A stretch of DNA of 63,991 nucleotides, counting the filler, from Dirinaria sp. TL-2023a (Eukaryota): NCBI GenBank assembly GCA_051941275.1. It is 5 parts of 5 records of this genome, joined end to end, with 100 filler letters (N's around TTAATTAATTAA, not from the genome) between each part and the next. Parts side by side here need not be neighbours in the genome. Positions count along the whole stretch, not along the records: positions 39,224 to 52,183 come from JAVEBF010000725.1; 4 more parts are not named here. One strand, given 5' to 3'. The translations under genes and the position numbers were made by a program. Under the pieces are notes generated by a model. It worked only from the letters and a program-made list of their open reading frames with translations, searched no databases and was not told where the DNA came from. Below, piece by piece: positions 12,985-52,183 of the stretch. Positions within the stretch are counted from its first letter, which is position 1. Each line of letters starts with the position of its first letter.

Positions 12985-13084
12985 NNNNNNNNNNNNNNNN
13001 NNNNNNNNNNNNNNNNNNNNNNNNNNNNTTAATTAATTAANNNNNNNNNNNNNNNNNNNNNNNNNNNNNNNNNNNNNNNNNNNN
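12985..13084. other. Artificial contig linker (N44-TTAATTAATTAA-N44)
   Basis: 100-nt spacer with a stop-in-all-frames core, identical at four positions in the window. Confidence 0.98.
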
Positions 13085-13899
13085 ATGCCCCTCTTCCCTC
13101 CTCCTCCTCCTCCTCCTCCTCCTCTTCCCCCCTTTCCCGCTGAAGAACTCGATTGATTCCGTCGCAGGCGTAAGCGCGAAAAGCGGCGTTTGAGCTGGCC
13201 CAGGTGTTCAAAGCATCCCATTGTGTACTGGCGTAGCGATTTCATACATCTAAACCCCCCTCAGATTTCGGATTCGGATTGGCGGAGATTTTTTTTGTGA
13301 ATGGGTACTGCGTGTGTGTATGGATGGATAAATGGATGGATGCAATGGATAATGATGATGATGCAGCAGCAGCAGAGGAGAGTGGACTAAAATGCTCAAC
13401 AAATAAACCGAAACTAAAAACAAATAATGAGAAACCTAAGCAACGCTCAACACTTCAAACGTAACGAACCAAAAAGCAATGGCGAGAGGACGAGGTGAGA
13501 TGAATACAGATTTTTTCATATGGACGGATGGATGGAGGCTTTGTTTCTTTTTTTCCTTTTCGGCTTGGGAGCCATATAGATAGATAAGTGAAGCTCATAT
13601 TGGAAGGGCAACGCATCCGAAATGAAGTAAAGTGGGACCTGAAATTGTGCGATGTGGCCAGATTTGTGGGAACTTTTCCACTGAAGATTCGTCACAACCC
13701 ACGCGAGAGCGCTAGTACGAGCTGGTAAAAGGGTAAGCTTGGAGCTCAGGAATGTCAGCATCGGAACTGCTTCATATTCGTCCCTTGCATTCCTAGCAAC
13801 ATTCTCTCCTTCCACGGAGATTGAAAAGCATTCCGTCTTTCAATGGAGCCGTGAGTCGGATATAGATGATTAGTCGCTTGATGATTTCGAAACAAAACC

Positions 13900-15418: not shown

Positions 15419-15875
15419 AGTGCTGGTTCATGGGTTTGAAAGATCTTAGGAGCAGCATTGAGAGCAATCGCTCTAGCTTACTCATGCATTAAGTATCATT
15501 GCCTTACGGTATGTTAAAGTATGTTGGGGCGGAAGGCTCAATGGACTCTAAGGTAGTATGTAGTAGTGTACTTAATCGATATAAACAAACCTCAAACGAA
15601 TGCGGGCCTCCATCATTCTTTACATTAAATCCACAACTCGTTCCTATGCTACTTATATCCGATGAACAGCTATCTATACACATGCGCTCACCCTGAGCGA
15701 AAAGTTGAACACATCGCAAACCTCCGCCCTTCGAAGGCAGATCTGACCCTTAACTCCACGCTAGCCAGGGTATAATGTAATACACGTGATGCGATCACCG
15801 CGTGGCGATATGCTGCTCTATGCTGCACAAATACACTTACTCTTGTGATACTATTCGCAGAGGGAGGGGAGTGAG

Positions 15876-18800
15876 CTATGAGAAGAAATATTGGCTCTTC
15901 TTGAGCCTGGAAACGTCGAAGTCGCCCTAGTTGAATGTTAACAAATACTAGCGCACAGCAAATGACCATGCATACCTTCTTGGGGACAGGTGGAAAGGTC
16001 AACGGTAGCCAAAGCCAAACGTTATTCATCCTTTTCCGAGTGGTCTTTTTAGCCTTGACACTTTTAGAGGCATCACATTGTATCTCTTCGCTCTCTTCAA
16101 GACCGCCTGAAACTTCATCGAGCTTTGCCTCACCACTGGGGACTGTATAGTGATCTTCCGTATCCGGGTCGAGCGATTGTGCATTACCGTGGTCGCCGAC
16201 CTCCAGTTGCTCGTTCACCTGCAACTTTGCAGTCCTTAAAGTTGGAATCTCGCCAATGCCGGCACCTTGTAGACTTTCCTCGGGCGAAAGCTTGGTCTCG
16301 TCGGCGATTGTCTGGAACATTTGCGCAGGAGTTACCATCGACAGTCCCCTCTCTCTTTCCTTTGGGTCCTGAGAAGCAATGAGATCCAACCGTTGCTTCT
16401 CCATTTGCAATTCCCGAAGTTTCATACTCTTGGTCTTGAGTGCTTCGTCCGTCCGGATCGATCGGCGCCATGACAGGATTCTGTTGCCAATGGCGGTTCC
16501 GACCTTCACAGTCGTAAGATAGAAATAGCCCTTGTATCTTGTTGCAAATTCAGTGGCCAGGCGGCCAACAATATCTTCAGAGTGCATCCTCACAAACTCA
16601 TTGCGGATGATGGTGTTCATTGTGTCTACGTCTGCAGCGTGTGTCCAAAATGAGTCATGTACCGACGCGAATGTCAAGCCCATTTCATTGCACTTGAGCG
16701 CCGTTAGGATCATATGAGAGGCATCGAGTGAATGAATGAAGTTAGGAGGAAAGGCTTGAAGTTGTTTTCGCTTACTGACTGGATCGTTGGAGGAATGGAC
16801 CTGGATACTGATTGCTTGGAGATTTGTTGATACTTTCTTTGCGCTCGATGTTCGATACGGCTGGACTACAGGCATTCTCAGCGGATTGGTCCAGATCACA
16901 GGTGTGGTGAATGTCATTGCTCGAGCAGCTGCCTTGCTCGCCTTGCCCCCTCTTGGGACCCTTGTGAATACTGAATCCGCCTTGCCTTTTGCGTGGACTA
17001 AGGCGGCATCAAGCTGCTCGGGGCTCACTGACTGCGCTATTCTGCCCGCGCAAGCGCCAAGCCAGTGTTGTATGTCATGTGCCCCATTGAACATATGGGA
17101 AAGTGCCTCGAAGATCTTTTTGGCTACATACTGAGCCATGTCCTCCACACTCACACGATGTGGACTAAGAGAATCAGCGAAGATTTGGTCAAGTTGTTTG
17201 CGAACCTGTAGCTTTGCGCCTATAAACGTGACCCCGTATACGTTAGTCATAACTGTCTGCTTCACAACCTTTCTCGTCACCCGGCCCTCTAGCGAGAGCG
17301 CACAGAGATTGCCATGAGCAGCGTCTTTGACAACTTCTGCTTTGACAATCTCCGCCACTGCAGTGTATATGTCCGAGGGACGGTCAGAAGGCTCTAGGTT
17401 AACCTGCTTGGCACCAATTGCATCGCCTCCAAGCGCAGCGTAGTGCTGTAGACCGTTGCACGTGCCATCCTGATGGATAGCAAGATGTGACACGAAGTGC
17501 TGCGGGTCTGGCGAGTCCAGTGCGTTCTTGAGCTCAATACAAGCACTCAAGCACTGCCATGGATCTTCAGCTTTTAGCCACCACCTCTTTCCACGCATTG
17601 GATTGGCGGCGGAGTCGTATATGTCAGGGAGGTGTTCCATGGTGAATTCCTCCCTCTCTCTGAAACTCGCTTTATCGTAACCATACAAGTTGGCCAGGTG
17701 GATTTTCAGCCAAGAAAGCCCTACGGATCCAAGTTCTTTACCACAAGCGAAGAGAAGGAGCCCACGGCAGTTATCAGCGCCGATATGATTGAAGAATGGA
17801 ACCATTGGGTACGCTCTGCCGCGAAAGTCCACATTATGGGGAAAGTAAAAAGTTTCGTTAGCAAACGCGCGAGCGACCTCTAATTGAAAATTTTGGAAGC
17901 ACCTGTTGCTTTTTTGCCCTGCCTTGAAGTTTTCTATGGTCTTGAGCTGCCTCAACCAATCTATTCGCTTCTGAGGATCTTCAGACGGAGATGGCTCCGG
18001 AGGTAACTCAACCACCGGATCCTCCGGTGGCATATCGGCAAATTTCTCCCCCGTATTCCACGCCTCGATCATAACTTCGAGGACAGCTCGGTTGATGCGC
18101 CACGGAGTCTTCCCAAGCACGTCCAGCCCGGCAAATGTATGAGCCATGTCACCATTTGAGCATGCCGTGACAGAGTACCGCCTTCCGACATCCATACTCT
18201 TGAGCCGTACTACTGGTATAAAGTGCTCTAAAAATCCACCTTCTCGAAAATCGGACCACGGCTTCGGTTCAATGACCATAGGTAGATTTTTCGACAATAC
18301 GCTACTGACCGGCTCCTTTGCAATCTTGGATGCCACAGCTTTGTGCAAACGGACGATGCCGATCTTCCTTCCTTTTTGATACTGAAAGGTGTGGAAGAAA
18401 ATGGGCTGACGCTCTGTCATTTCTTGACCCGTTTCCGGATGCGTGGAAACAACGTCAATATTCGAAACTTCCATTAGATGCCATAGAAGCAATGTCCCAA
18501 CCCTTACCTTGATGGCTAAGCTCCACTGTAGGTTCTCCATTGTGTCTGTCATGCTTTCTCCAAGGCGAAGCATTTTCGCGAAAGAACTGCGTGGATTGCG
18601 CCGCTTTATGAACGCCCTTAATTTTGCAAGACGATCCGAATGTCCGTGGACCTTGTGCATCCGTGTGCTGTTGAGCTTAACTGTCTCAGCGATACTCTCA
18701 TCCTGCACGGATTCTCCGATCTTCGCAACTACGTGAGATAGCTTACTACCTTCGTCAAGACGGCCCTCGGTACTGAGTTTAGACACGGTAGTAAGAATAG

Positions 18801-20175
18801 TTACTGCCGACAGGGTCTCTGGTGGAAGATACTGGAGGAAAGGACCAAACCGGCAACGTTCTTTATCCGCAGCATTTTTGAAATCCTTTCCCTCAGCCTC
18901 ATTAGCTCTCTCTATTTCTTGGCGTATTAACGGCACAAGTTTCTCATGCCAGCCCCACATTAGCGCTCCGATAGGTGAAGCTCCCAGACTCGAATTTATG
19001 CCCATCTTCTTCTGGTGCATGCTTTCCTCGCGCCAGCGTTTAAGAGCCGACCTAAAGGTGTCCTGTTCTAAAGCGCGTTGCCGCGCTATGGCATTTTGAG
19101 GACTTCCACCCTTCACGACCTCTTTCGAACTGTCTTTGGGTGTTGAGCTAGCGTCTGCAAAAATCGAAAGAGATTGGCGTAGCGATTGGAGTCCAAGCCC
19201 TTTGACAAGCATAGGTTTCACTTCTGGTATTTTATCGGACTCTTCAGGACGAATGGTGGTAATCGGAGGTAGAACGACTTCAGATTTTTGATTGATTTTA
19301 TCAAAGATATCGAGCTCTTTTTCAGATGAGAGGCCTGTCAAGACGTGTTGCGTTTCTTCAGAAACACCATCCTCCCCTGCCAGCTTTAGATACCTTCGAG
19401 TTTCTTGGCTTACTTCCTCTCTATCAGGTACTTGGAGACTCGAATGTAACATTAAAGCATATGTCGTAGCATCAGGAGGAACCCTCTTCCCCCGTAGCTC
19501 AATCTCGAACCAATTTTGAATCTGCGTAAGCAATGTCTTGTCGTGTGTTATGCTGAGGTGGTAAATGAGCTCGCGCAAGTAGTCATTATGAGCAGCTATA
19601 AGCCCTGGAGCATCTGCTTTGTACAGCACATTGAGTCTACGCATCAGTGCTGCAGCTCGATCGAGACGGCCAACTTGAAGGCAGGCGTGGAGAGTCTGGT
19701 GGATTTCGGCAAGATCACCACTGATGCCATCGTGTGACCTGAAGATTGCGGCGGTAGTCGTAGGAGATTGATCTATAACGATTGCGGTTTTCGGGTCGAA
19801 AACGCCCGGGCCAGGGGGACCAGCCTCCACTGGACGCCATGTGCCGTCGGCGGTGCCGGAATGACTGAAGATACCGTTTGGAGGCTCAAAAGGAACAAAA
19901 CCACCGTCCAGGGGGCTTGGCTCTGCAATAGCGGCAAACGCATGCCCGCGACGAGTGGGTCGTTTTCGTGACGAAGCTAGCTCTGACGAAATGGTGCTCG
20001 ATCGATTCGATTTCCAAAACGCTTGATCTCGATTGGAACTCAGGGTATATCTTTGACGAGGGATCGGTGTGTAGAGGGCCGGGCAGAGCCATGGCAAATG
20101 AAAGTCCGTGCACGAAGCCTGGAGACTTCTCTGAGAGACTGATGGCAATGGTTTTCTCGAAGCCCGTACTAGCAT
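15876..20175 (-). CDS. RPO41: Mitochondrial T7-like DNA-directed RNA polymerase; 49-nt intron 15927-15975
   Basis: HNVDFRGRAYP, HQDGTCNGLQHY, RKVVKQTVMTNVYG, PPNFIHSLDASH and SVHDSFWTH motifs. Splicing restores the conserved C-terminus GDFDVSRLKKSQYFFS*. Likely start MLVRASRK resembles a mitochondrial presequence. Confidence 0.95.
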
Positions 20176-20795
20176 ATTAGGGCCAAGTGCTCGTAGGGCT
20201 TTGGAAAGGCCGGTCAGCACAACGGTCAAAGGAAAAGGGAGGAGGGGAGCGGAGAACGCAACGAGAAGCAGTGCATGCCTGAGCAGATGGCTGCCCAAGC
20301 TCAAGGATTAAGGTGGGTAGAAGCTACAGGGAAGTCAAGCTCGAGAGGTGGATGGCAAAAAAGTTTCACAGTGCATCATTTCGCTCCTGATTTTGAATGA
20401 CTAATCATATGCTAGCGGCGTGCTAGCGTGCCACTGCAAAAGACACCCTCGAAGCCTTTAGCAATCCAAGATTATGAAGTCTTTATCCATCATTCGTCGT
20501 CTGCTCAACTGCATCATAATAAATGCTGAATGCAAATGTCGTGAAGTCAGATCCTTCCCGATCTGCATTCTATAGCTTCTGTTCATACTTGTGTCGGACG
20601 GAGAATATTCGTTCTGTTACTGCTAGAGACGCGCTGCTAGAGAATTCGACTATGGACATCAATAGGCGCATCTCGTTCTCATTCTGATAAAGCATTCACA
20701 TGATTTAAATGAAGTCCTTTGTCTGGCTGCACACCTTTTCTTTTTCAAGTCTTGCCCTCCCACATGATCCACAAAGCAGTCAACGAGAGAACATA

Positions 20796-37270: not shown

Positions 37271-38621
37271 ATGGCTCCTCAAAGCAGTATACCGGTAGCG
37301 GCTAACGTGCTCGGAACAATGGGCACTGTGCTATGGTGTGTTCAGCTAGTACCTCAAATCTGGTACAATTGGAAGCAGAAAAAGACAGATGGTCTACCAG
37401 GCATAATGATGTTCACCTGGGCCACATGTATGTCCCATGCCCACTTGTCACCCCGTCAATACTCATGAAATCAACAGCCGCTGTACCCTTTGGCGTTTAC
37501 GCCGTGGTTCAGGTCAGAACCCCATCAAAAAAAGCCATTCATGCGGATAGTAGGGAAGATATTGACCTTTTGAAGAACTTCAACATCCCGATCCAAGTGC
37601 AGCCGCAGGTTTTCGGCACCTTGTCCCTCGTCAGCTGGGCTCAGATCCTGATATATCATAAGTGATACTGACTCTACCGTTTCCCCACCTGTTTTATTAA
37701 CATATTTCCAGTGGTTGGAAAGTATGGACAGCAACACTGCTGGCTAGCTGCCTTGGAGCTGCATACGGTGGCATCGAAGCTCTTCTGATCCTGACGCTGA
37801 GGGCATGACTTTCGTTTAAACCAGAATCTAAAAGTAGGGCTAATGTCGTTCCAGGGTCCTTATATCAGAGGGGTCTCATGGCCTGTGACCTTGATCGGAA
37901 TCATCGCCGCGATACTGCTCGCTGCGGGACTGATCCCGCCCTACTTCGAATTCTGGAAACGGGGCGGTAGAGTCGTTGGCATCAGTACGTCAACCTACAT
38001 CGGAATCATCAAACCATACTCTAACCAAAATAAATCAGACTGGTTCTTTCTAGGTATTGACTTCTTGGGAGCCTTTTTCTCACTCATGGCACTCGGTCCG
38101 TAGATACATATCCCCTCCTTCCCCCCCCTCCCCAATAAAAAAGGCAGGAAACGCTTGCCATATGCAGCATGTAGCTAAACCCCAGTCCCGCACAGTGGCC
38201 CAATCCACCTTCGACGTGCTCGGAGGAATCCTCTACATCATCGTGTAAGTTCCCCCCCCAACCCCCTCCTTAATCCAAAATCCAAAATCAACTAAAAAAA
38301 AACCCTCAAATCTCTCCCAGCCTCCTCCTCGAACTCGGCATCTTCGCCTCGCACCTCGCATGGCGTTTCCGCACCCGCAAGCTGCACCAGCAAGCCAAGC
38401 TCCAGGGACGAAATTTCGATGACCTGCCCGAAGCAAAGAAATACCAAATTTCGACGGATAGAGGCGCGAAGTCTGTGCAAGGGGATCTGGAGAAGGGAGG
38501 TTCTGAGGGAGGTAATGTTGGGACCTCTCCCTCTCAGGATCGGAGCGCCGCGGGGAGTCTTGGTGGTGATGGAGAGAGGGAGAAGGGGGGGAAGAAGAAT
38601 AGGTGGTGGTTTCATTTCTAA
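37271..38621 (+). CDS. PQ-loop repeat membrane transporter, multi-exon
   Basis: ANVLGTMGTVLWCVQLVPQIWYNWKQKKTDGL, IQVQPQVFG, GLIPPYFEFWKRGGRVVGI and FLGIDFLGAFFSLMAL segments. Confidence 0.88.
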
Positions 38622-39123
38622 TAAAAAAGAAAAGGGTAAAAAGCTCTCTAAATCGGTGGTTGTGGTTGGGGGGCGGAGGAACACGTCCTAGGATTTCCGT
38701 GCACACTTTATACCGTATTCTATTATATTTCCTTAGTATATAAGCCCAAAAAATCCCCCTATTGAAAGTTAGCCACAGATACAAATAGAGAAGAAAAAAT
38801 TCTTCTATATATACAAACCTATACAAATAGAAAAGAAAAGAAATCAGTACACCATCCTCGAAAGTCGAAATCCCTGATCCACGGTCACGTACCCCAAACT
38901 TTTTTCTTCCTTTTTTCTTTCCCCACTTGTGTTTGTAAAATCTTCCTGCATACATACTCTTTCTCTCCCCAACTTCTACGCAATAAAACCAGCTGCGCAG
39001 CCTGTTCCCTATTTTCTTTAAAAAAAAAAAAAAGGTAAGCAAGATCTGCCGCACAGCAAATAGATACTGTACAAACCCACTACACCAAATACTTAATTTC
39101 TAATTTAATAACGGTCGGCGCCA

Positions 39124-39223
39124 NNNNNNNNNNNNNNNNNNNNNNNNNNNNNNNNNNNNNNNNNNNNTTAATTAATTAANNNNNNNNNNNNNNNNNNNNN
39201 NNNNNNNNNNNNNNNNNNNNNNN
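39124..39223. other. Artificial contig linker
   Basis: N44-TTAATTAATTAA-N44. Confidence 0.98.
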
Positions 39224-39633
39224 GCTATTGGGTTTTTTGAATATATGTGGGTGGTTTGGGGGGGGAGATTGGATTTAGATGAGGGAAATTTCTTTCGGCA
39301 TTTTTTATTCTGCCTTTTCAAAGTTCCAAAATTTGTCGGGGCTCCTTTTGTGTGAAATAACGTCTACCATGAAATTTTATAGAAATTTTGAAACCCTGAA
39401 TTTCGACTTCGAGCCTTAAGTGCATATATATACCTTATGCAATAAATAGATTGTGCTCAGCAAGACACAGCGCAAACACTACCTGGACTTTGCCCTCAAA
39501 GAAGGCTTTAAAGAAGATTTAACCTTCACGACATGCCGCTTTGTAGACGGACAACTAATCAGTAAAAGCTATCGAGAACGGAGCTCCGCATCCTTGCCGC
39601 CTGTTTTCAGCTAGACACTTTGGTTGAAGTGAA

Positions 39634-41650
39634 CTAAGAGGCCATTCTGGGCGAAGTTGTTCCGTCGATTCGCGAATGGTTGCTTTGCATGATCGCAGTG
39701 GACTCTGTTAGTCGATTTGCAAGGCAGACTCCTGGTAAAAGCATGCTATCTACTAATGCCGCGGACATATCAGCCAAATGCAACGGTGACGCAGATGAGA
39801 CTCGGTCTGACGATCCACGCTGTCGTACTAGATCAGCATTCCTCGCTCGCGCCTCGACGCCCGCGGCTTTGGCAAGGCGGCAATGATTATAGTATGATTC
39901 GACCTAATTATCAGTTAGGGTCCACATATTACTCTGGGTTGTTCGCAATGTGTAAAAGCTTACCTGGGTCGCCGATTTAGTGCCCATTCTCTCCGACATC
40001 AATTGCCAATTAGTACCAGTCGTACTTATCAAATTATGGAATGCTGTTCTCTCTTCACGTGACCAGAAGTCGGTGATTCTCGGTTCTTCACTAGTGAAGG
40101 TTTCGGAGTAAACCGCTTTCTCGACTTCATTCGGTAGATAGGTGTATACAAGTTGGACGCGTCGGAATTGGACAACAAGAGGACTTGTGCTATAGCGGTC
40201 TCTTCTCCGTCCATTAATTACGGAGAAGTATTCAGCAGGCCTTATAACTCTTGACTCGTTTTCCGAGGGTCTGAGGATACGTTCTTGTACCCGCCGATAG
40301 TAAAGACCGCACCGAGCGCTATTGCATTATGAAAAGATTAGCTAGTGAATCTGAAAACAACATTGATCCTATCAATAGGTCAACAGTATTTTCTGCTTCG
40401 AAAGAAGCGCCGAATGGTATTCCAATTATCGTAAGCACTTCAGTTGATGACGTATCGAATGATCCCGTACACTACTCGATTGGATTGTAACGTTATGAGA
40501 AGAATGCCTCATCCGGTCGGATCGAGCTTTAGTTCAAAGAGAGGCTGGGGTGGAGCACGTGACCTACCATTCTGTTTGCGATTCGAAATCAACCTCATTT
40601 TCCAGTCGACAGCCGGGACATATGTTCCAAGGGACTCCACGGTGGAAGATCATGCTCATGTCGATCTTTTGGCCGGGTTTCATGATTTGCGACCACGGTT
40701 TGGCCAGATCCAGCTTACCTTTGAAGTCTTCAAGAACGAACTGAGAGTCATCCAGCATCTGAAGTCCGCGGTCTTGGACTCCATGCTGCTGAAAACGAAT
40801 CTTGAGCACGGCTAGTAAAGCCTGGGCACAGCTGACGAAGTCCAGGTGAAAAGCGCATACGTTCCCACACGCGTCAAGCAATGTGACTGGCTTTTGGAGA
40901 GCGACCTGCGGCGGTATATCATAGTGAAGCTGTACAGCACCACGAATTTGCTGCAGTTCATAAGCGATAAGCTCATTTGCTTGTATAAGTTGGCGGTTGC
41001 TCTCGAGAAGGGACAGGAACATTTGTCTTTGGTCTAGAGTCAGATCCCTCAGCAACGAAGTTGTCTGATCGAAGTGCATGTCTTGTTTTTGGTCGCGCAG
41101 TTCCATTGTGTTTGGATGTTGGGGTGCTTGCGGAGTACATTGCTCGAAGGACTGGCTGCTGTAAACCATTTGAGCGACACGAAAAGTGTGGTAGAGGCAC
41201 TGCGGCGTACACTTGGAGGGTCACCAGTAACATACTGATAGACGAGCTATGGCGCTCGAGCTGAGCTCTGAACCGATTGACATCGTCCTGTTTACACAAA
41301 GCCCATTGAATTTTCTTCAGATTGGCTTTCCAGGTCGCGCGTGCGGGGATCTTCGTCCGGAAACATGGCTGGTACTTGGCAATTGTTGACAAGAAGGTCT
41401 CAATGCATTGCCGGCAGCGTGAGACTGCCTGCCGGATCGCAACAGCTTGCTTGGATTTAGGTCCAAACTGTTGATCAAGCTTCAAATCTTCCACAGCTTC
41501 CAATCCATCTCTCAGGCTATCGATTTCATGCGTAAGTGCCCTGAAGTCAGCGCTCGATCCCTTTGTATCTTGAAGTGCCTCTATGGATTGCTTGATGAGC
41601 TTGAGACCTATCACGATATCGCTTACCGAGAAGCCGAATCCGACGGACAT
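39634..41650 (-). CDS. HeLo-like/fungal STAND N-terminal domain + ubiquitin-like domain + CxxC..CxxC + SANT/Myb protein; exons 41650-41211, 41159-40568, 40318-39964, 39903-39634 (3' end less certain)
   Basis: MSVGFGFSVSDIV...KIQWAL...FRAQL (HeLo-like); QKPVTLLDACG..FHLDFV..LLAVLKIRF (ULD); CPGC..CARCG; FWSREERTAFHNLISTTGTNWQLMSERMGTKSATQVESYY (SANT). All three GT-AG introns are phase-consistent. Confidence 0.75.
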
Positions 41651-43533
41651 GCTGGGCTTTCTTTCGGTTTATTTTCCTGTCATTTTCTTCTCGTATTCAG
41701 AGACATCCTAGTCCCGTACGTACCAGCCGCGACCGGGGAATATTATGATTACATTAGATGATCCAAAAGATGTTGTCGGTCTCCAAGAGGACAAAGTAGC
41801 CTGCGATGGCATCGGGCGATGGCATGACCTTGACGATACCGGAGGCGATAACCAGCGGCCCCCAATTGTAGTCGCTGTACAGTAGGAGCCAAGGAGCCCT
41901 ACTTAGCCGAACCGGTCTGCTTTCTTCAGTCCAGGCCCCAAGGCCCCCAGTGACAGTTAGAATCAGGTCATGGGGGTAATTTCCTTCGCCTTTCATTGGC
42001 CTCGAGCAAGTAGCTGCGTGACACTAAACTGGGGGAGCCCTCCTAAGGTAAGGTAGGCTGCTCCCCTCCCTCCCTCCCCTCCCCCCAAAAGTATCGCACC
42101 GTACCGTACCGCACCTGAGATTGCCCTTGGCGCCAAGATTTTCATGTTCTATCTGTATCAGGGACTTCGGTCCAAGGAGTCCTTCGGGAATGAAAAGTTA
42201 TCGCCTTAAGTACTCGAGGCTCTCTTAAATTGAGTCCAGAGGGTTCATTATGCAACTACGCACCAAGGTATCACTCAGCCACGCCTAATGTTGTCCATAA
42301 ACCCAGAAATTTGATTGTCCCCTTTTCTTGCACGGGTCAGACGACACAGCACAAGAAGGGGGAAAAATAGAACGAAATTGAGTTGACGTAAGATTACATA
42401 TTCTCACTCTCTCACGGAACTATCAAATCATGGAGGAAAATTGCCGCGATGACAACGACAGGAGAATTAAAGTAGTGATGAAATTTCGCTAGTATAATCA
42501 ATCGAGGTTTTTTTCCTCTCCATACGGTTGACCTATTGCTCTCTCTGCGCCTTTGTCACAGACCTTACCCATGCTCCTTTGAGAACTTCATCGCATTTTT
42601 TCTGTCGTTCCTTACGCACGCTTGTAGTCTCAAAAGTATGCAGATTCTGTCGACACTCCTTGGTAGCTCCGGTTGCGTATATATACGAGACAGAACACCT
42701 GAGGCGCTAAAGCATAGCAAAACGAGAAATCATGCACGGTTCCTAGAGGAATTATCGAAGGACCCGGAGAACGCTTAGTCTCTTTTTGATTCTGTCTTGT
42801 TTTTGGGCACGGTGGAAAAGGGGTCTGAAGCTGGCGTTTTTCTCCCTTCTCTTACTCTGGTGCTCCACTCGACCTCTCTCTTATCGAATGACTGGTGATT
42901 CTGGCGCCAGCTGCCAATCCAATACCAGTACAGAACACAGAGATTTTTCTGATTTCGCAGATTTGGCGGCTTTGAACGTTACCGATAGTAATCAAACTAG
43001 GATGTTACACCTTACAGTACACCTTAGAAGGCTGCTGCGAGAAAAAGAATCGATACTACGGGTTAGCCTTCTTTATCTCTTCTTGGGATAGATCTTGGCC
43101 GATAGGAGAATCGGTAAAGAATCATTCATGGAAAACTCTCAGCCGACATCGTCCCAAAAAGGGCAAATCACATGACTTTGGCCTAACGGTATGTTTGCTT
43201 CCTTGGAACAAATTAGGCACCAATTGGTAGGAAGACTTGCTAGGTATGCTTTGTATTCCGAGGGACAGGTGAATTTGGGTTGGTATGCAATCGGGGAGCC
43301 GTTCTCAGCGAGCCAACTGGTTTGCCTCTCGGCATTGCTTGCTCGCTCCTCTCCAATTTGAAAAACAACCGCAAACAATTTGAGCCAAGAGTTAAGGGCG
43401 GCTCGAGTCACACTACGCGTGCAAACCTTTGCCCATAAATAATCGGGCAACCTAGATTCCCGTTCATGATGTTTCCTCCTCTCTCTCCACTTCCAATCTT
43501 ATTCCCATTAACTTTAACAAAAGTTTGTCAACA

Positions 43534-44104
43534 ATGCAGAACCTCAAGCTCAGTTCTCCGAAACCTATCCAATCCACTTCCCAAGGGCCTCTCAGCTTTG
43601 CTGAATCGAAGGCACAACGTCGCTCAGACGGGGCGCAAGGGGCCGAGCGGAAGACACGGAAGGCCAGATCTTACGATCCTCAGGATCCGATTCGCCTAGA
43701 CAAGCAGATGGGGAGAGAATACCGTTCTCAGCGCGAGGGCAAAATCGGCGAGGAAAGAAAAAGATCTGAAGCTGCTGGAAAGAGTCGCGTCTGACACCCT
43801 GGCCGTGCATCATGACGCAATCAAAGCTTGGGAGCAGAGTTTCAAGGAAATCGTTGGCAATCAGAAAGATAAATCGTACAAAATTGAGGCCGCTGTGAGG
43901 GAGAAGTTGGACTCGCAGCGGAGCGAATGGGCTACCGATTTCTATATTGGGAAGATGAGGGACACCTTAAAAGGTGCTGAGAGTGAGGTTGTGGAGAAGG
44001 AGATGAAAGAGATGAGAGAGGCTTTGAGACATGTTTTCAAAGAGAAGGCGAAGACGACGCAGAAGGAGGTGCATAGGATGTTGCTAGATGAGGAAGGAGG
44101 GTAG
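43534..44104 (+). pseudogene. Possible frameshifted hypothetical charged/coiled-coil protein
   Basis: Two offset reading frames (MQNLKLSS...GKIGEE and KDLKLLERVASDTLAVHHDAIK...EEGG*) overlap at an A-rich run near 43750-43765; no intron is evident. Confidence 0.3.
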
Positions 44105-44341
44105 GGCCTGCTTGAACAAAGCTAGCTGCTACAGCACGTTCGACCGTTCTCAACGCTAGGACCTAGCAGGTTTGCGAATGGGAAGAATGGCTCCCCATGG
44201 CTGCTTTTGAGAGAATCTTCCTGTAAATTCTTTTTAAGCTGCGGCAAATAGCTCTCCAAGCTGTGGTTCGCGTGTAGCTTTTGGATCCAAGAACCGGCAA
44301 GCTGTCCCCCCAACGAAATCCGAAAGTCGAGATTTCCAGAA

Positions 44342-45997
44342 TTACTCGTGCATTACCCTTTTCTGCATTCCCAGACCGTTCCTAATCTCGTCCTCGCGCT
44401 TCACCACTCCGATTGGCAGGGCACTACCAACGCCACTCAGCACGAATAATGCCCACTTCCAACGGAATGGATTGATCGCGACACAAAACACAAACCAGTA
44501 CGTCAACTCTGAATACGTGAAAAAATCGAATGCACCTGCCGGAGCCTTGGACTTCACCCATTCAGTCATGCTGATCCATCTTTTCATCCAGTACTCCGTT
44601 GGCCGCGCAAGCGGGTCGACGAGGAACATGAGCAGCAGCCGCGTGTAAATCCCGATGTGATAGTTACCAACCGTGCCTATGGCATTTACATACGTTGCAT
44701 TGATAGCACATATAGACATATGTTTGGGCGGGAAAACTTGAACAAACCACTTAGGAGGCTGGTAATCTGGTTCGAAGCAATCTGGGGGAAGAAAGGAGAG
44801 CGAAGGGCGTTGAAATCCGGTAGCAAGGATGACCATGTCACCTTTGATTTCTTCCTCGCGGCCTGGGCCACCTTTTGGGACGCCCTGAGCGCGGTGATTG
44901 AATAGAATCCCATTTTCCGTGAAACTGATAATGTCTCCACGGAGCCAGGCTGCTTTGTGGGCACGGATTTGATGAAATATATCAGAATTTACCATGGGTG
45001 TTCCGGTAAAAAGGCCTTCAGATGGTGGTGCAATGTCTTCAAGATCGCGATAGAAGAATGTTTTGAGAATTCTCTCCGGGATCCAGGAGAAGATCGTTTC
45101 TTGACCGAATATATTCAGTGCGAGAAGCACATCAACGAATGCATTGCGTGGAATGATCCATTTCTCAGAGCGAGCGAGCACAGATGTGCTTGCAGCGCCG
45201 GTATTGACGACGAATTCGAGAGCCTCAACAGCGGATGCACCGCCGCCAATGATCAAGACTTTCTTGCCCTGGGCAGTCTTGCCATCTAGCATCGATGAAT
45301 GGTAAACCTCACCTTTGAAAGCTTCTTGATTGGGCAAGTGGGGCATTTTTGCCTGCCCATGTGAGTCTTATGCAATGCCTGCCGAGGGGAAAAAACACAT
45401 ACATCTCCACAGCTGCCAATTGCAGGAATGACGCCGTCAAAGCGGCCGTTGGAAGGGTCATTGATGATCCAGCGCCCTTGCTTATCCTGAGTGACGGAAT
45501 TGACTCGGGCATTGAACTTTGTGCGCTCTTGCAGCCCATATCGCCTCCAAAGCTGTACGATTTGGGAGACGATTTGCTGACGATCTGGATAGCCTTCGCT
45601 CCATTGAATTGAAGGGTGAAAGCGATACATGATGCTGTGGATCTGCAACCCGGATGTATTGTTGACCCGCTTTTGATAGTCAGAATGGTATTCTTCTCCC
45701 CAACAGCTCTACTGAAGCATGTATGAAGCGGAGAACGACGTGCTTGCAGCACCGATAAGAGCAACTTACGCTCCATATCCCTCCAAGATTCTTTTCATCT
45801 CCGGCTTCGAAGATGGTTACATCGAAGCCATGACCTACACAGTGAGATGCTGCTGATACACCGGTCAGTCCAGCACCAATGACTGCAATTCGAGGTCTGC
45901 CCAGGCGGGCATGCGGCGGAGGTGGGTTGGGTGAAAGAAGCCTGCCAAGCAACCACTGAAGCCATGAGTACAACCAGAGGACAGGGTGAAAATCCAT
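44342..45997 (-). CDS. Flavin-binding monooxygenase-like protein, multi-exon
   Basis: FAD motif IAVIGAGLTG, GGIWS, LQIHSIMYRF, YHSS, NADPH motif IIGGGASA and ILATGF. Confidence 0.9.
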
Positions 45998-46402
45998 GAT
46001 CGAAGGCTGAATATAGTATATCTCAATTTAGTATATCTCAATTGATTAAGAAGCCTCGGCCATTTTGGAATTCCTCGCATTTATTCATCTCACACCACCC
46101 TCCTGACGTAATTGCAGTAAGTTGGATGCATTAAAGTTCGGTGCATGTGAAAGCCCGGCACAATTGACGGACCGGAGTTCGAGGGCTGTCCTAGGGTTAT
46201 GGATATAATTAACACCTCAAGGTACCTCATGCAAGGGCACTCCAAAGCCGGGATACTCCTCCAAAGAATATGAACTTATATTATGAGGGCATCAATACTA
46301 GGTGTCATATTCATGATACACCAAGGATAGCGCGAAGGTTCCCTCTACGTAGCAACGAACGCACAATGACATGCTAGTATCTAAGCCGTGGACCTTGCAA
46401 AT

Positions 46403-48174
46403 ATGACCACAGCTACGACTGACAATTTTCTACGCGAGCTGGCACGTATTTTGCAGGAAAAGAATGGCGCACAATTACAGGACTACATGATCCTGGAGCC
46501 GCCCTTACCACCATTGTACAACCAGATTGTGTCCGAACTGAAGCAGACTTATCCCATCTTTAATCAAGCGCCGCTGGAAAGCAAGGTCAAAGACTTCATA
46601 CCCGAATATGAAGAAGGTGATGACGGGGCTTCCAATGCATCTTTCATTACCTTCGTCCTGAAATACCTTTCTTTCCTCCGGGATGTCGATGTTGAGCAAC
46701 TCGTCGAGACTCATGACATGCTGAAGTCGCTTCTGAAGTCCGTTCCAATCGAAGTGGAAGTCCAAAGGAAGATGCTGCTGACTACGGGACTAGCCAGTGT
46801 ATCCTTGCGCTGAGCGCGTCGAATGGGCTAGTGGTCCTGCCGACTGTGATCTCCTTTTCGCGCACGTTGGCCAGACTGGCCATCGGACTGGATAAGAGAC
46901 CGGACCTGATCGCGCATCTTACGAGACGAGAATCCAGCGCCGGGAATGAGGAGGCCACTGAACGGGTAACGCTGGTCGAAAGCTCAGCAAACGTAATCCG
47001 AGAAGCCTTCAAGAAGTGTCTCAGCGAAAGGAGCGGAAATGCTTCTGGTATCGATAGCGATGGCAAGCCAGAAGGGAGGCGTATTGGGATCTATCTGACT
47101 GCCAATCTCTGCCTGAAACTATTCTTCCATTGTAGGAAATTAAGAAGTGCAGAGCAGATATTTGGCAATATCTACCAACAGTCTCCTCCACTGGCGCTTT
47201 ATCCAGCATCCCAACGCGTCACCTTTCTGTACTATCTTGGTCGATACCAGTTTGCGAACAATCACTTCTATCGGGCGCAACGAGCGCTCCAAGCTGCCTA
47301 TGACCAGTGCCATGCCCAGTGTCCCAAACAGCGTCGTCTTATTTTAATCTACTTAATCGCTTCAAACCTCATCCTTGGACGGTTTCCAACCCCTGGCCTG
47401 CTCAAGCGCACAGAAGCCCACGGGCTGGGCCAAAAGTTCCAGCCGATCTGCTCGTGTATCGTCAAGGGAGACCTGGCCTCCTTTCGGCGGTTGATGGACT
47501 TGAACAACAACGACGTTGAATGGTTCTTGAATAAGCGCATCTTGCTCCAATTCGCCAATCGGTGTGAGGTCCTCGTCTGGCGTTCTCTAGCTCGGAGGAC
47601 TTTCCTTCTCAGTGGCACCCAAGGCAATGCCAGCAACAAGCGAGCGCCGACACTCGATCTCCAAGACATGCACATTCTAGCCACGTATCTGGAACGCAGA
47701 GCTCTGAACACCGACAAACCGCAACCCAATGGCCGTACTCCTCATACGAATTCCATCTTCATGGTCCCTGACGCAAAGAGAGCTAAATCCGGAGATCCGC
47801 AAGGCTACACAGATCCAGATCTGGCGGGTGTCGTAGAGCCATCAGGGCCTGATCTACCTACTATGGAAAGCGTCGAATCGATGGTCGCTTCGCTGGTAGA
47901 ACAAGACCTTTTGCATGGATTTATCAGTCATAAGTCCCTGCGATTCGCCATCACCGGCGCGAAGACAGCGGGCGCTCTAGCCGCAGGGTTCCCCAATGTG
48001 TGGGAGATCATCAGGGGTAGGGTAAGTAGCGATGACGAGGTGCCAGGATGGGTTCAGGAAAGGAAGTCTAATGGCCCGTTTGGTCCAAGAGGGTTAGCAG
48101 GATTGGCTCGCGGAGCTGGACCGGGAATGGTGGTCAACTTAAGCGGTGCGAGACCCGCGGGAGCTGGTCCATAG
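46403..48174 (+). CDS. CSN12: PCI-domain protein CSN12/PCID2-like; one intron near 46738-46793
   Basis: IREAFKKCLSER, GIYLTANLCLKLFF, QRVTFLYYLGRY, RLILIYLIASNLILGRFP and VASLVEQDLLHGFISH motifs. Confidence 0.8.
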
Positions 48175-48244
48175 TACAACGTCCCTCTAAATTATCCAGC
48201 AACAACCGTCCAAAAATCCTCCGTTGTTCATCCTTGAATCCGCT

Positions 48245-49216
48245 CTATTTGCCCTTCCTCCTCTTCCCCAACCCTCTGCGTTTCCTCTTCTCCCACGCCT
48301 CTCCAACCCTCACTGCCTCCCCACCAGAAACCTTCTTCCTCTTCTTCGCGCCCTTCACAAGCTCGTTCAACTCGCCTCCAAACCCCAGATCGTCCTCCCC
48401 AAAACCCTCACCCACATCTCTCCTGCGCTTGCCACCTACCTTCCCCTCCCTCGGCAGTCTCACAAGCCTCTCTTCCTCGTATCTCCTCCTATCCGCCTCT
48501 TTGTCCGCCGTCCTCCCTCTCAGTCCAGAGCCAGCACCAATCGACGGCTCAGCAAGCGGAGCATCCTCAAGCTCTTCACTCACAAATTCATTCAGCGCAT
48601 GGGACTTGCGAGGTCGGCGATCCTTTCTCGCGTCAGGCGGCGCCACGGGTGTGACTTGCGGGGGCCGATACACGCCCGGTTTTCGAGATGGCGATGGTGA
48701 GCGGCGGTCGGGGAGACGGAAGGCGGAAGGGTTAGGGCGGTATGACAGGTCGGAGATTTTGGGAGGGGCGCTGTTCGCAACCTCTTCCTCTGAGGCTGAT
48801 CCTGTTGCCGCCGCCTTCGTCGTGGTGGTGTTGGTACCATTGGCGCCGTTGACGATGGCTTTCGAAGCGCTGTCATCGGCAGCAGCGAGGAGCAGCTTGT
48901 CGATTTGGTATTTCAGGCGCGTTTCGAGCGGGCGCACCCCTTTCTCAAGGTAGACTCGTAGGGCGACCAGATTCTGCACGACGGCATCGTCGGAAAGGGG
49001 TTCGGCAGGTTGAGGACCTTGCTGCCGCAGCTTGTGGATTATGAAGAAGACTAGGTTTTGCAGGTAGGAGAGGAGAAGTTCGTTCTTGATGTCCAGCAGG
49101 GATATCCCCTCGGGTGGTGGGGCAAGGGCTGATGGCTCGAGGAGAGAGGTGGAAGCTGATGTGAGAGAGTCTGTGAGGGTAGCGCAGAGCTCGGAAAGTG
49201 ATACTGCTGCTGCCAT
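48245..49216 (-). CDS. LCP5: U3 snoRNP / SSU processome component Lcp5 (Sas10/Utp3/C1D family)
   Basis: GISLLDIKNELLLSYLQNL, RVYLEKGVRPLETRLKYQIDKLL, LSYRPNP, GVYRPP and YEEERLVRLP motifs. Confidence 0.88.
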   Translation of the reverse strand: MAAAVSLSELCATLTDSLTSASTSLLEPSALAPPPEGISLLDIKNELLLSYLQNLVFFIIHKLRQQGPQPAEPLSDDAVVQNLVALRVYLEKGVRPLETRLKYQIDKLLLAAADDSASKAIVNGANGTNTTTTKAAATGSASEEEVANSAPPKISDLSYRPNPSAFRLPDRRSPSPSRKPGVYRPPQVTPVAPPDARKDRRPRKSHALNEFVSEELEDAPLAEPSIGAGSGLRGRTADKEADRRRYEEERLVRLPREGKVGGKRRRDVGEGFGEDDLGFGGELNELVKGAKKRKKVSGGEAVRVGEAWEKRKRRGLGKRRKGK

Positions 49217-49962
49217 TACTATTTTTGGGGTTTGTATCTTGTCTGGACATTTGGAGCATTGGGGTGAAATTTTTCCTTGTGTTTGAAGTTGACATGCGGA
49301 ATCGCAGAAGGCAATTTTACGCGAGCGAGTGCCGGCTGGGGGGTCCTCCCTTGATTTCCACCATCCCATCCGTCCTTCCAGAGCCGAGGGAGCCGATTCC
49401 CTCAGGATGAGATCTAAGATCCCATTACTTTAGCTTGACACCTTTAGTCAATCAACTACAACAGTAACAACACGCCCATCGCTAAACCGTCGAGCCTCCG
49501 ATGTAAAACCAGGAACGATGCACTACGATACGGCATGGTAAGCTGGGTCCTCCAAAGCTTACCAATCGAAGCCACCGACGATGTCTCGTCGTATTAGTTG
49601 CACCACCGCGCCTGTTGAGGATTCGTCCGAAATCAGGCGTACTCCATAGGGCGGACGATGACGTGAATCTACCTTGGATTGGGGACATGTTGCGGCTGTG
49701 TCAGACGCGGGGTCACCTTACCTCAATGGACTTAGGTTCTAACGTACCAATTAGTAAGAGTAAGGTAGGTATGTAAGCTGATGCCAATGGAATAATATCA
49801 AAGTTGCATGGAAAGAATCGCAATTACAAAGCTTTGAAAGTGGGCTTCTCCTGATCTCCTCTCTAAATTTCTCCATAGATACTGCTTCATCTGCTCCTCA
49901 TCTGTAGTCGAAGCACGAGTTCGCGTCTACCATTTTTATTTGACAGATCTTTTCTGCCCACC

Positions 49963-50982
49963 ATGTCCAGTAACACTGCAGCCATTCTCAAAGAGGCCAG
50001 AGCCCAGATCACGGTCGAGCAGCGGCCCATACCAACTCCCAAGGCAGGCGAATTGCTCGTCAAGAACTCTGCCGTGGCTATCAATCCCGTCGACTGGAAG
50101 ATCCAGCAGGGAGGTTACATTATCACCCAATACCCAAACGTCCTCGGTAGCGATGTGGCTGGGACTGTGGAAGCCATTGGCCCAGATGTGAAGCATTTCA
50201 AGAAAGGTGATCGCGTCACTGGCTTCACCGGAGTAATCGGCACGAACAACATCGACGAGGGCGCGTTCCAGAAGTACTCCATTCTAAGGGAGCATTGCGC
50301 AGCGAAGCTGCCTCAAGGTATAAGCTTTGAGGAAGGCGCGACGCTGCCCATGTCTGTTGCCACAGCCGGTGTGGGGATGTGGCAGTCGCTGGGTCTACCG
50401 AAGCCAGAGCAAGGCAAGCAAAACGGAGGCTTCCTCGTTTGGGGAGCCTCGTCCAGTGTGGGTGCCAGCGTGGTCCAGATGGCCGCGCAGCTGGGATATA
50501 CGGTGTTCGGCGTCTGCAGCCCGCACAATCACGAAGACGTGAAGAAGCTCGGTTGCGCCGACGTTTTTGACTACAAGACGAAGGATGTAGCCAAGAACAT
50601 CATCGCTCGTGCTGAGTCGGGCCGAACGCCGATCACGGTGGCATACGATGCCATTTCCGAACACGGTAGCCCAGCTCAGTGCGCGGAAATCTTGGAGGCG
50701 TTCGGTGGCGGTAAACTCTGCTTGACTCTTCCCTGGCCGGAAGATGCAAAGAAGCCAGACAATGTCGAGATTGCCAATACTCTCGCTTTCGCAGTTGTCG
50801 AGAGTGCTAAGGACTTAGCAGCCTGGCTGTTCAACGACTGGCTGGAGGGAGCACTGGAAAATGGTTCGTACAAAATCTATCCAACCGTTCAGGCGGTTGA
50901 GGGTGGATTCGATGGTGTACAGAACGCATTCGAAGTACAGAAAAAGGGCGTCAGCGGGAAGAAGGTGGTGGTGCCAGTGTAA
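49963..50982 (+). CDS. Zinc-type alcohol dehydrogenase / enoyl-reductase-like MDR protein (CipB-like), intronless
   Basis: AVAINPVDWK, LGSDVAGTVEAIG, GAFQKY, LVWGASSSVG, VFDYK and VSGKKVVV motifs. Confidence 0.9.
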   Translation: MSSNTAAILKEARAQITVEQRPIPTPKAGELLVKNSAVAINPVDWKIQQGGYIITQYPNVLGSDVAGTVEAIGPDVKHFKKGDRVTGFTGVIGTNNIDEGAFQKYSILREHCAAKLPQGISFEEGATLPMSVATAGVGMWQSLGLPKPEQGKQNGGFLVWGASSSVGASVVQMAAQLGYTVFGVCSPHNHEDVKKLGCADVFDYKTKDVAKNIIARAESGRTPITVAYDAISEHGSPAQCAEILEAFGGGKLCLTLPWPEDAKKPDNVEIANTLAFAVVESAKDLAAWLFNDWLEGALENGSYKIYPTVQAVEGGFDGVQNAFEVQKKGVSGKKVVVPV

Positions 50983-51127
50983 ATAGTTCAGAGCCGTGCA
51001 AGGTCCATCGACAAGGAAAACCCTTATTTCAGAGAAGAAGCCAAGGCGTGTAAGCAAGAAGGTTTTTGGATTATCCTAAATCTCGCTCTGCCTGGAATGT
51101 GACTTGTTTGAAATGTCTCCCCGTGGA

Positions 51128-51970
51128 TCACTCCTCATCTGGATCGTACAGATCTAACCCACCAAATACCTTGGGCTTTTCCTCCTCCCTCGGGGCCTCT
51201 CTCACCATCGTGGAACCTTGCTGTGGGTGCCTGGTTGAGTACTCGTGTGATACTGCGTCATCTTTGCGCTGCTCCTCTTTCCGGTCATCTTCAATTCCTC
51301 CCTCCACCTTTTGTTCCCCTTCGATCTGAATCGTTGTCGGATCAACACCCTGCTCTAACATAGCTTGTATCTGGCCCAATGCGCCCTGCCGAATGACCTC
51401 CTCGCTGGGCCACGGCACGAAGCCGCTCTCACCCGGCAAAACAGGTGCCTGTGCCTGTACCTCTGCTTCCTTCGCCGGATCCGCTTCAGCGCCAACACCA
51501 TTCACCTCACCCTTACCCGGCGCCTCAGCGACCTCCTCGCCCGCCTTCGTTTCCAACGACTGTCGCGCGGCGGTGGCGGCCGGATACGTAGTGCGGGGCG
51601 CGGTATACCGACTGATGCGCTGGGCGAAATCAAGGAGCTCGCCGCAGGGCACCTGCTGAGGAGCATCATCATCATCGTCCGGGACGGGAGTGATTTTCTG
51701 GGTCAGGATCTCGGAGCGCAGGGTCGCGAGGGACGTCAGTTTGGCGGTGATGGTCGCGTTGAGCGTGGCGATCTCGGAGCGCAGGGAGGTGATGCGGCTG
51801 TGGTTGCGCTGGTGGGTCACGAGCTGCTGGACGCCTTGGTTCAGCTCGTCGTCGGCCGCGAGCAGCTCCTGCGCCGCTGGGATGGAGGGGTTGTAGGATG
51901 CGATGGAGTCGATGAGGGTGCTGAGGGAGGCGTCGATGCGGTCCAGGCGGGTTTGAATGGTTTGGTTCAT
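51128..51970 (-). CDS. MED4: Mediator complex subunit 4 (start may be an upstream in-frame ATG)
   Basis: RLDRIDASLSTLIDSIASYNPS, LLAADDELNQG, ELLDFAQRISRYT, FVPWPSEEVIRQGALGQIQ and C-terminal FGGLDLYDPDEE. Confidence 0.85.
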   Translation of the reverse strand: MNQTIQTRLDRIDASLSTLIDSIASYNPSIPAAQELLAADDELNQGVQQLVTHQRNHSRITSLRSEIATLNATITAKLTSLATLRSEILTQKITPVPDDDDDAPQQVPCGELLDFAQRISRYTAPRTTYPAATAARQSLETKAGEEVAEAPGKGEVNGVGAEADPAKEAEVQAQAPVLPGESGFVPWPSEEVIRQGALGQIQAMLEQGVDPTTIQIEGEQKVEGGIEDDRKEEQRKDDAVSHEYSTRHPQQGSTMVREAPREEEKPKVFGGLDLYDPDEE

Positions 51971-52183
51971 TTGATTCATTCTTGGGACTGTTGGGACAGG
52001 AGCCATTGCGTTATCCAAGATTCAAGTATCTCAAGGTATGTAAAGCTATGGAGTGTAGAGGTATGTACGGTATGTACCTTTTACAATAATGAAGAGCAAG
52101 TACCTTAGATAGGGGGGTAAACCCTAGAAAGGCTCATGCATGTCAGGCACGAAGTCAAGACTGGCTGACTGGGACCATTGAGG

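Follow-up and report, generated by a model that had tools for sequence, protein, structure and literature searches.

The subject of this study is a gene on the minus strand of a stretch of DNA of 63,991 nucleotides (filler included, hereafter the window), which was joined from five parts of the assembly GCA_051941275.1 of Dirinaria sp. TL-2023a; the gene lies at positions 41650-39634, within the part originating from JAVEBF010000725.1 (positions 39,224 to 52,183). We find that this gene of a lichen-forming ascomycete, represented by a Dirinaria metagenome-assembled genome (MAG), is expressed and consists of four exons, with splice joints that were read from the RNA of a close relative. Its product almost certainly consists, from the N- to the C-terminus, of a HeLo-like bundle (PF17111), a two-helix hairpin, a ubiquitin-like domain (ULD, PF22893), a four-Cys zinc ribbon, an FRRVQLV strand, a SANT/Myb domain and a tail motif. 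Within one family of lichen fungi, the SANT domain of one lineage has a Forkhead domain as its counterpart in the other, inserted between identical flanks, which amounts to a natural experiment. We tentatively propose that a constant N-terminal core carries an exchangeable C-terminal cassette, which targets the protein to the nucleus or to chromatin, a plausible reading to which we give somewhat less than an even chance.

Gene structure and transcript evidence

The coding sequence (CDS) comprises 1656 nt (551 codons, or amino acids), all four exons being read from the minus strand. The first ATG of the frame is located at 41650 and is preceded by an in-frame stop at 41669-41671; the 5' untranslated region covers at least 41651..41859, as an RNA contig of a relative extends to 41859. 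Exon 1 (41211..41650, codons 1-146 plus 2 nt) encodes the HeLo-like or PigL_N-type helical bundle and is followed by intron 1 (41159..41210, 52 nt, GTACGC..CAG), over the position of which the deposited protein P0001 reads ...LQVSQSF.... Exon 2 (40568..41158) contributes the long helical hairpin, the ULD and the first zinc-ribbon CxxC. It ends at intron 2 (40319..40567, 249 nt, GTAGGT..TAG), which interrupts the codon of Cys344 (TG|C), the spliced reading being ...QTE-C-ARCGLYYRRVQE. Without splicing, the donor of intron 2 reads TGG TAG, i.e. W and then stop, which is why the open frame apparently ends near 40564. On exon 3 (39964..40318), the second zinc knuckle (C344..C347) is followed by the YRRVQE strand and, after a linker, by the FRRVQLVY strand (40144-40167); helices one and two of the SANT domain come next, from about 40077. 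Intron 3 (39904..39963, 60 nt, GTAAGC..CTAAC..TAG) is located inside the SANT domain (...KSATQ|VESYY...), and exon 4 (39634..39903) supplies the third SANT helix (39868-39903) together with the helix after it, and then the tail, whose conserved motif SPLHLADMSAALVDSMLL is encoded at 39736-39789, before ending in the stop codon TAG (39634-39636).

The RNA data are assembled contigs from three runs of one sample of a single lichen metatranscriptome study. In all three runs, contigs skip exactly 60, 249 and 53 bases, thus showing the joints of all three introns; the 53-base skip corresponds to the 52-nt intron 1 and one substituted base. A single contig of 1719 nt covers 41859 to 39758 through all three joints. 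The contigs are 90-95% identical to the window and therefore stem from a close relative, not from the Dirinaria strain of the window; since they provide neither strand nor expression level, the spliced form is one seen in the relative. Within the CDS, the contigs show just two indels relative to the window (+1 and -1), which lie three bases from each other, so that the frame is preserved. From a different run collection, the orthologue P0002 is an uninterrupted open reading frame (ORF) of 563 aa with 81% identity to the window protein, and it has to be intron-free because its contig measures at most 2131 nt. The deposited P0001 (462 aa, marked partial, from a Dirinaria sp. MAG) holds exons 1-3 with ...SATQ as its last residues, so that exon 4 is the only one missing from the public annotation.

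An earlier note, which was made from the sequence alone, had drawn these exons together with GT-AG introns of 249 and 60 nt joined in phase. All of its exon coordinates and sequences were reproduced, the contigs of the relative cross the joints at the bases it had predicted, and its assignment of the SANT exons to the same transcript, not to a separate gene, is borne out by the one contig that spans all three joints. The SANT domain, which it had called hidden, is so with regard to exon 4, which is missing from the public model, but not with regard to exon 3, which was already contained in P0001. We consider it highly improbable that the model is an artefact of annotation or assembly, with SANT exons that belong to another gene or a chimeric transcript that is an assembly error, or that the gene is decaying. 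Such an error would be in line with an RNA support made up of assembled contigs of a relative from one study, and several gene models of relatives are clearly merged or truncated. However, all three runs agree exactly on the three joints, which have GT..AG ends, the donor, branch point and acceptor of intron 3 are canonical, P0002 is an independent intron-free frame of 563 aa, and at least 14 named species keep the order of the parts with an open frame.

The constant core and its family

A structural model was built with AlphaFold2 (AF2) on the orthologue P0002 and 83 aligned relatives (mean predicted local distance difference test score, pLDDT, 79). In this model, helices 9-26, 33-62, 67-97 and 103-119 form the bundle, helices 121-184 and 188-227 the long hairpin, and residues 238-319 a beta-grasp fold, which is followed by the zinc-ribbon region, strands at 350-355 and 399-404, a three-helix SANT domain (427-474) and a further helix (480-499). 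The bundle, the hairpin, the ULD, the SANT domain and strand 399-404, which reaches a pLDDT of about 91 between disordered linkers, are modelled with confidence. The two short strands, YRRVQE and FRRVQLVY (350-355 and 397-404 in P0002), are alike and border a disordered acidic linker, and acidic residues precede the FRRVQLVY strand in most relatives. The FRRVQLVY strand resembles strands of the SUMO-interaction type and could dock on the protein's own ubiquitin-like domain. The identity between P0002 and the window protein amounts to 85% over residues 1-147, 81% over residues 148-343 and 65% in the C-terminal part, i.e. the N-terminal part is the most conserved.

The ULD (residues 235-319, 40642..40896, minus strand) matches ULD_2 (PF22893) with 38.8 bits at a cut-off of 24.5. 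The top Foldseek matches of the beta-grasp fold are SUMO, ISG15 and ubiquitin (probability 0.99-1.0, E 0.04-0.1, target template modelling score 0.55-0.68), and VIA-align yields Z 6.8 for ISG15 and Z 6.9 for UBX. In the first knuckle of the zinc ribbon, C327-P-G-C330 (40609..40620, minus strand), the two Cys are found in 72/83 and 74/83 of the aligned relatives; C344 and C347 of the second knuckle are each found in 44/83, and the remaining relatives mostly show gaps there, originating from models cut at intron 2. The two conserved CxxC pairs thus form a putative four-Cys zinc ribbon. The ubiquitin-like domain and the zinc ribbon of the earlier note, as well as its statement that there is no P-loop (the motif G....GK[ST] is absent from 5/5 family proteins tested), are therefore in agreement with our data.

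Intron 2, which interrupts the Cys codon for the third zinc ligand, is a conserved feature of the family and has consequences for public gene models. Among 150 representatives, 27 stop in ...W at the intron 2 site, 10 more read through into intron-like sequence, and both CxxC pairs are seen in only 46; P0010, P0017 and P0021 are among the relatives concerned. From the models that end in W or read through, we conclude that many of the short public models (about 320-370 aa) are probably truncated at intron 2, just as the raw ORF of the window is. Surveys based on deposited proteins consequently under-count the C-terminal domains of the family.

A phmmer search with P0002 returned 1501 family representatives at E<=1e-3, 530 at <=1e-10 and 96 at <=1e-30. 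Nearly all of them align to residues 1-357 or 1-405 only, that is from the start of the core to the zinc ribbon or to the FRRV strand, and the named members belong to the Lecanoromycetes, Geoglossomycetes, Dothideomycetes, Leotiomycetes and Eurotiomycetes. The constant core comprises the bundle with a near-invariant N-terminal helix, the hairpin, the beta-grasp fold, the four-Cys ribbon and an FRRVxL strand, before which lies an acidic patch. Neither NACHT nor NB-ARC was found in any of the 150 best representatives (62 scanned at E<=1e-3, 88 at E<=1e-5), nor in a Pfam scan of P0001, P0002 and P0004, and the absence of a NOD domain is therefore the norm of the family and not an oddity of the Dirinaria gene. 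Judged by these alignments, the core defines a large NOD-less family of the Pezizomycotina. The general statement of the earlier note that such N-termini normally precede a NACHT or NB-ARC domain thus does not apply here. Comparisons with solved structures gave nothing significant, either for the family profile, whose best match was a nuclear-receptor zinc finger at the zinc-ribbon region (E 0.21), or for the P0002 sequence; Foldseek returned 0 matches at E<=0.001 for the full P0002 model, and an ESM Atlas search with residues 380-563 of P0002 gave no usable match.

The N-terminus deserves closer consideration. Exon 1 of the window matches PF17111 (called PigL_N in the Pfam copy used, formerly Helo_like_N) with E 3.2e-5 and 23.8 bits, P0001 matches it with 21.3 bits, both under the cut-off of 27.2, and the N-terminus of the window protein matches SesA below the cut-off as well (E 1.7e-3). 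P0012, which is 50% identical to P0002 (E 8.7e-89), scores 33.3 bits on PF17111, and among 62 long relatives 23 are at or above the cut-off and 35 at E<=1e-3. By transitive homology, the N-terminus is therefore homologous to members of PF17111, in agreement with the HeLo-like N-terminus of the earlier note. This assignment rests on sequence homology and not on the fold, because the fold matches are no better than those of unrelated helical bundles. An AF2 model of exon 1 has helices at 9-27, 34-62, 67-91, 105-118 and 121-145. The N-terminal bundle matches MLKL (4btf_A, Z 9.1-9.3, root-mean-square deviation (rmsd) 2.6-2.9 A, 100 residues, 15% identity), the CC domains of MLA13 (Z 9.0-9.1) and Rx (8.1-8.2), the CC-R domain of NRG1.1 (7.6-8.3) and AtMLKL3 (7.3-7.6), and HET-s (2wvq_A) is matched weakly by Foldseek (E 0.53). 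The extreme N-terminus carries the near-invariant motif F5-G6-x-S8-x-G10-D11, the positions of which are kept in 74-80 of the 83 aligned relatives, and the Kyte-Doolittle mean of the first 19 residues, a computed proxy, is 1.45-1.59, indicating a borderline transmembrane propensity.

SANT and Forkhead domains in one slot

The slot considered here is bounded by the QFRRVQLV strand, which is invariant, and by the tail motif. It contains a SANT domain in 7 named species, namely Dirinaria of the Caliciaceae and Teloschistes flavicans, T. exilis, Villophora, Wetmoreana, Fulgogasparrea and Ikaeria of the Teloschistaceae; P0002 and P0076 are further sequences with SANT and tail. Within the searches made, this cassette is present only in lichen fungi of these two families. 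Exon 3 of the window alone matches Myb_DNA-binding (PF00249) with 20.9 bits (E 4e-4) over profile positions 4-37 of 46, a partial coverage that results from intron 3 cutting the domain, and full-length orthologues pass the cut-off of 24.4 (P0002 26.3 bits, P0004 25.9). As a fold, the domain matches SANT2 of CoREST (6vyp_N, Z 8.8, rmsd 1.7 A, 60 residues, 27% identity), and the SANT/Myb domain of the earlier note is thereby supported. Its likeness to Snt1/NCoR-type repeats was not recovered: the best sequence matches of the SANT domain among solved structures are the Myb domain of WER and CoREST (E 0.2, range 0.2-0.9, not significant), and NCoR, SMRT and Snt1 are absent at E<=1 from the comparison of P0002 with solved structures, in which no fungal Snt1 sequence was compared.

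In 7 other named species of the Teloschistaceae (Xanthocarpia lactea, X. ochracea, Gyalolechia marmorata, Calogaya, Xanthoria, Squamulea and Polycauliona), the same slot harbors a Forkhead domain, with scores of 57-64 bits on PF00250 where scanned here and precomputed PF00250 matches for the rest. Both forms share the N-terminus, the ULD, the zinc ribbon, the QFRRVQLV strand and the tail motif SP[LF]HLFxMSAALL..., the latter being present in 14 fetched proteins of both forms. No species with both forms was seen among these incomplete MAGs. According to the NCBI taxonomy, the Forkhead form occurs in the Xanthorioideae and Caloplacoideae and the SANT form in the Teloschistoideae and Caliciaceae; the exception is the SANT-bearing Fulgogasparrea, which is listed under the Xanthorioideae and whose sequence is identical to that of Wetmoreana over the shared part.

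A quick maximum-likelihood tree, unrooted and calculated from the core only, groups nine clade members together with a Shimodaira-Hasegawa-like approximate likelihood ratio (SH-aLRT) support of 100 and nests a Forkhead trio among SANT forms (supports 90 and 80, nesting branches not starred). The simplest reading is a replacement of SANT by Forkhead, in this presumed direction. Dirinaria is placed inside the sequences of the Teloschistaceae, so that an old paralogy is also possible. Searches for donors of the SANT or Forkhead cassette outside the family gave family members only (6 and 5 proteins). The SANT domain of P0112 is weakly similar to that of the window (30% identity, E 7e-4 in a set of 162 proteins); since P0112 belongs to a distant clade of the tree, we treat its SANT domain as a putative independent gain.

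The survey for variable C-terminal domains suggested by the earlier note was positive, with SANT, Forkhead, Myb x2, Clr5, RGS, MIT and EVH1 as its yield. In distant clades, matches at or above the Pfam cut-off are Myb x2 (P0085), Clr5 (P0091), RGS (P0111), MIT (P0126) and EVH1_PP4R3 (P0061, P0081), and matches to Hpt, PHD and a single Myb stay below it. An extra C-terminal domain match was obtained for 11 of the 62 long relatives, 7 of which reach the cut-off; most relatives have other C-termini, or none recognised by Pfam. Two gene models in the SANT group look merged: in P0005 (Teloschistes exilis) the tail motif continues into a full ZPR1 protein, and P0006 (Wetmoreana) begins in the linker and continues into a C2H2 zinc-finger region. 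A synteny with ZPR1, as suggested by the fused P0005, was considered and dropped, as there is no ZPR1 match in the window.

We read the cassette as a candidate module for chromatin or nuclear targeting or for partner binding because two folds of the chromatin or DNA type share one slot with the flanks kept. In this mechanism, the C-terminal cassette would be an exchangeable module that determines where the protein goes, be it chromatin, DNA or a nuclear partner, and the core of bundle, hairpin, ULD and zinc ribbon would be the constant, regulated working part, with a layout that may be compared to MLKL (bundle, brace helices, regulatory domain). Engagement of the cassette or the tail could alter the self-association or the exposure of the bundle, and the output may be membrane attack or a non-lethal nuclear function, either of which is a candidate.

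The exchange of two DNA- or chromatin-type folds in one slot with retention of the tail would likewise suit an ordinary regulator of transcription or chromatin, in which SANT or Forkhead binds DNA or chromatin, the acidic-hydrophobic tail acts as an activation or co-factor motif, and the N-terminal helices serve dimerisation as a coiled coil and protein interaction, the HeLo likeness being functionally meaningless. Other clades bear Myb x2, Clr5 and PHD-like domains, PF17111 now carries the Pfam name PigL_N and not HeLo-like, and the gene is conserved, present in one copy and surrounded by housekeeping genes, all of which is compatible with such a regulator. However, the N-terminus is the most conserved part and its extreme end is near-invariant, which is unusual for a mere dimerisation helix, and among the domains of relatives there are also some that do not bind DNA (RGS, MIT, Hpt-like, EVH1). 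In addition, the SANT domain is not basic, with a net charge of -1, and the recognition helix of the Forkhead domain varies. In the alignment it reads GWQSSVRRNLK compared to GWKNSIRHNLS in FOXO1. Owing to the charge of the SANT domain and the variable recognition helix, a sequence-specific binding of DNA by the cassettes is doubtful. Altogether, we regard such a regulator as possible but not as probable.

An unconserved recognition helix is also what one would expect of a bait. In such an integrated-decoy death switch, a reading that goes back to the earlier note, SANT or Forkhead would mimic a nuclear host protein, a foreign factor would bind or modify this bait, and the freed HeLo-like bundle would insert its N-terminal helix in the membrane and kill the cell without a NOD domain. 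The HeLo-like domains of HELLP-type proteins have been described as membrane-targeting and cytotoxic in dependence on the N-terminal helix (PMC12881547, PMC10197012), and killing in fungal NLR pathways is ascribed to such bundles (PMC12881547, PMC10197012, PMC9815663). The homology of the N-terminus to PF17111, the near-invariance of F5, G6, S8, G10 and D11, the borderline transmembrane propensity of the first 19 residues and the large paralogous family with variable C-terminal domains are in line with such a switch. However, the protein lacks a receptor part, no NLR was found in the window, and an amyloid-type C-terminus is likewise absent, although no search aimed at amyloid motifs was made. 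Moreover, the orthologues are well conserved and keep SANT and tail within the clade, unlike a fast-evolving bait, the gene is located in a housekeeping neighbourhood, and the structural match to MLKL and HET-s does not exceed the background. We therefore consider the death switch unlikely. Only a low probability is likewise assigned to the wider idea that the family with HeLo-like bundle, ULD and zinc ribbon represents NOD-independent, MLKL-like fungal death or immune switches, whose slot would gather baits copied from hubs of nuclear function and signalling (SANT, Forkhead, Myb, Clr5, RGS, MIT, EVH1); if true, the exchange of SANT for Forkhead in the Teloschistaceae would be a bait swap between sister lineages of lichen fungi.

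Several points weigh against the targeting cassette on a HeLo-like core, which we nevertheless prefer. The RNA support stems from a relative and from one study only, and in the AF2 model of P0002 the tail reaches a pLDDT of only 35-47, which is low. The window protein's own PF17111 score is under the cut-off, Foldseek of the exon-1 model gave 0 matches at E<=0.001, and the matches to MLKL and plant CC domains (Z 7.3-9.3) stand among generic bundles, with the four-helix domain of CBL on top (Z 10.4-10.6). With regard to the cassettes, the negative net charge of the SANT domain and the recognition helix of the Forkhead domain, which shows several substitutions relative to FOXO1 and FOXK1 and is not the same in all species, have to be considered, and some C-terminal domains of relatives may stem from merged gene models such as the ZPR1 fusion of P0005. 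A basic cluster resembling a nuclear localisation signal precedes the FRRV strand in 15/44 relatives only and was therefore dropped as a general feature of the family. Finally, the literature searched contained no functional datum for any member of the subfamily.

Relation to known systems and surroundings in the window

The closest relatives of the Dirinaria protein are the proteins with PF17111 and PF22893, annotated as 'Fungal N-terminal domain-containing' or 'Ubiquitin-like domain-containing', which are its own family and with which it has the core up to the FRRV strand in common, the SANT and tail cassette setting the Dirinaria form apart. No publication on this architecture was found in the literature searched; the family is one of uncharacterised proteins. 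With the fungal 'all-in-one' NLR/STAND proteins that have a HeLo-like or SesA N-terminus, the protein shares the type of N-terminal domain (SesA E 1.7e-3, PF17111 E 3.2e-5), but it lacks NACHT/NB-ARC, P-loop and repeat domain. The likeness to HELLP, HELLF and HET-S (HeLo) lies in the bundle homologous to PF17111 members and in the conserved, borderline-transmembrane N-terminal helix; unlike the two-gene modules of HELLP and HET-S, the protein continues with hairpin, ULD, zinc ribbon and SANT. Regarding the hallmarks of these modules, the C-terminus is SANT plus a helical tail and there is no adjacent NLR among the 25 large ORFs of the window, no dedicated search for amyloid motifs having been made. 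From this we conclude that the protein is neither an NLR nor part of a two-gene module of the HELLP/HET-S type.

MLKL resembles the protein in its N-terminal four-helix bundle, two long connecting helices and a regulatory C-terminal part, whereas the Dirinaria protein has no pseudokinase and its fold match is no better than that of unrelated bundles. To SANT2 of CoREST and other SANT/Myb domains it is similar in the three-helix SANT fold, but here the SANT domain is a single repeat ending an unrelated scaffold. Plant NLRs can carry integrated domains, e.g. WRKY on RRS1. The comparison with them is an analogy only, in that a variable nuclear-type domain is fused to a constant module resembling a CC or four-helix bundle; the Dirinaria protein is not an NLR, and an immune role or a guarded target could be suggested by this analogy alone.

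What makes this large family of wider relevance is that its bundle of the HeLo-like type does without a NOD domain and is combined with a ubiquitin-like fold and a zinc ribbon as well as with an exchangeable C-terminus. The SANT and Forkhead forms provide a handle on the role of the slot, be it targeting or sensing, and on possible non-lethal nuclear roles of HeLo-like bundles.

The housekeeping ORFs of the window are located at 4157-20307 and 44342-52021 and encode an ABC transporter, a Sad1/UNC (SUN) protein, an aldehyde dehydrogenase, a mitochondrial-type RNA polymerase, an FMO-like monooxygenase, Sas10/Utp3, a zinc alcohol dehydrogenase (ADH) and Med4; no match to NLR, NACHT or NB-ARC was obtained for the 25 large ORFs scanned. 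About 450 bases 3' of the stop codon, a run of N at about 39100-39180, taken as an assembly gap, appears as X in ORF translations. Beyond it lies a long low-complexity frame on the minus strand (38233-39099, 288 aa), which is rich in F, L, K, G and R and probably not coding. On the other side of the gene, about 420 bases 5' of the start codon, the minus strand contains the G-rich stretch GGGGGGAGGGGAGGGAGGGAGGGGAG (window 42065-42095), which lies past the end of the RNA contig at 41859.

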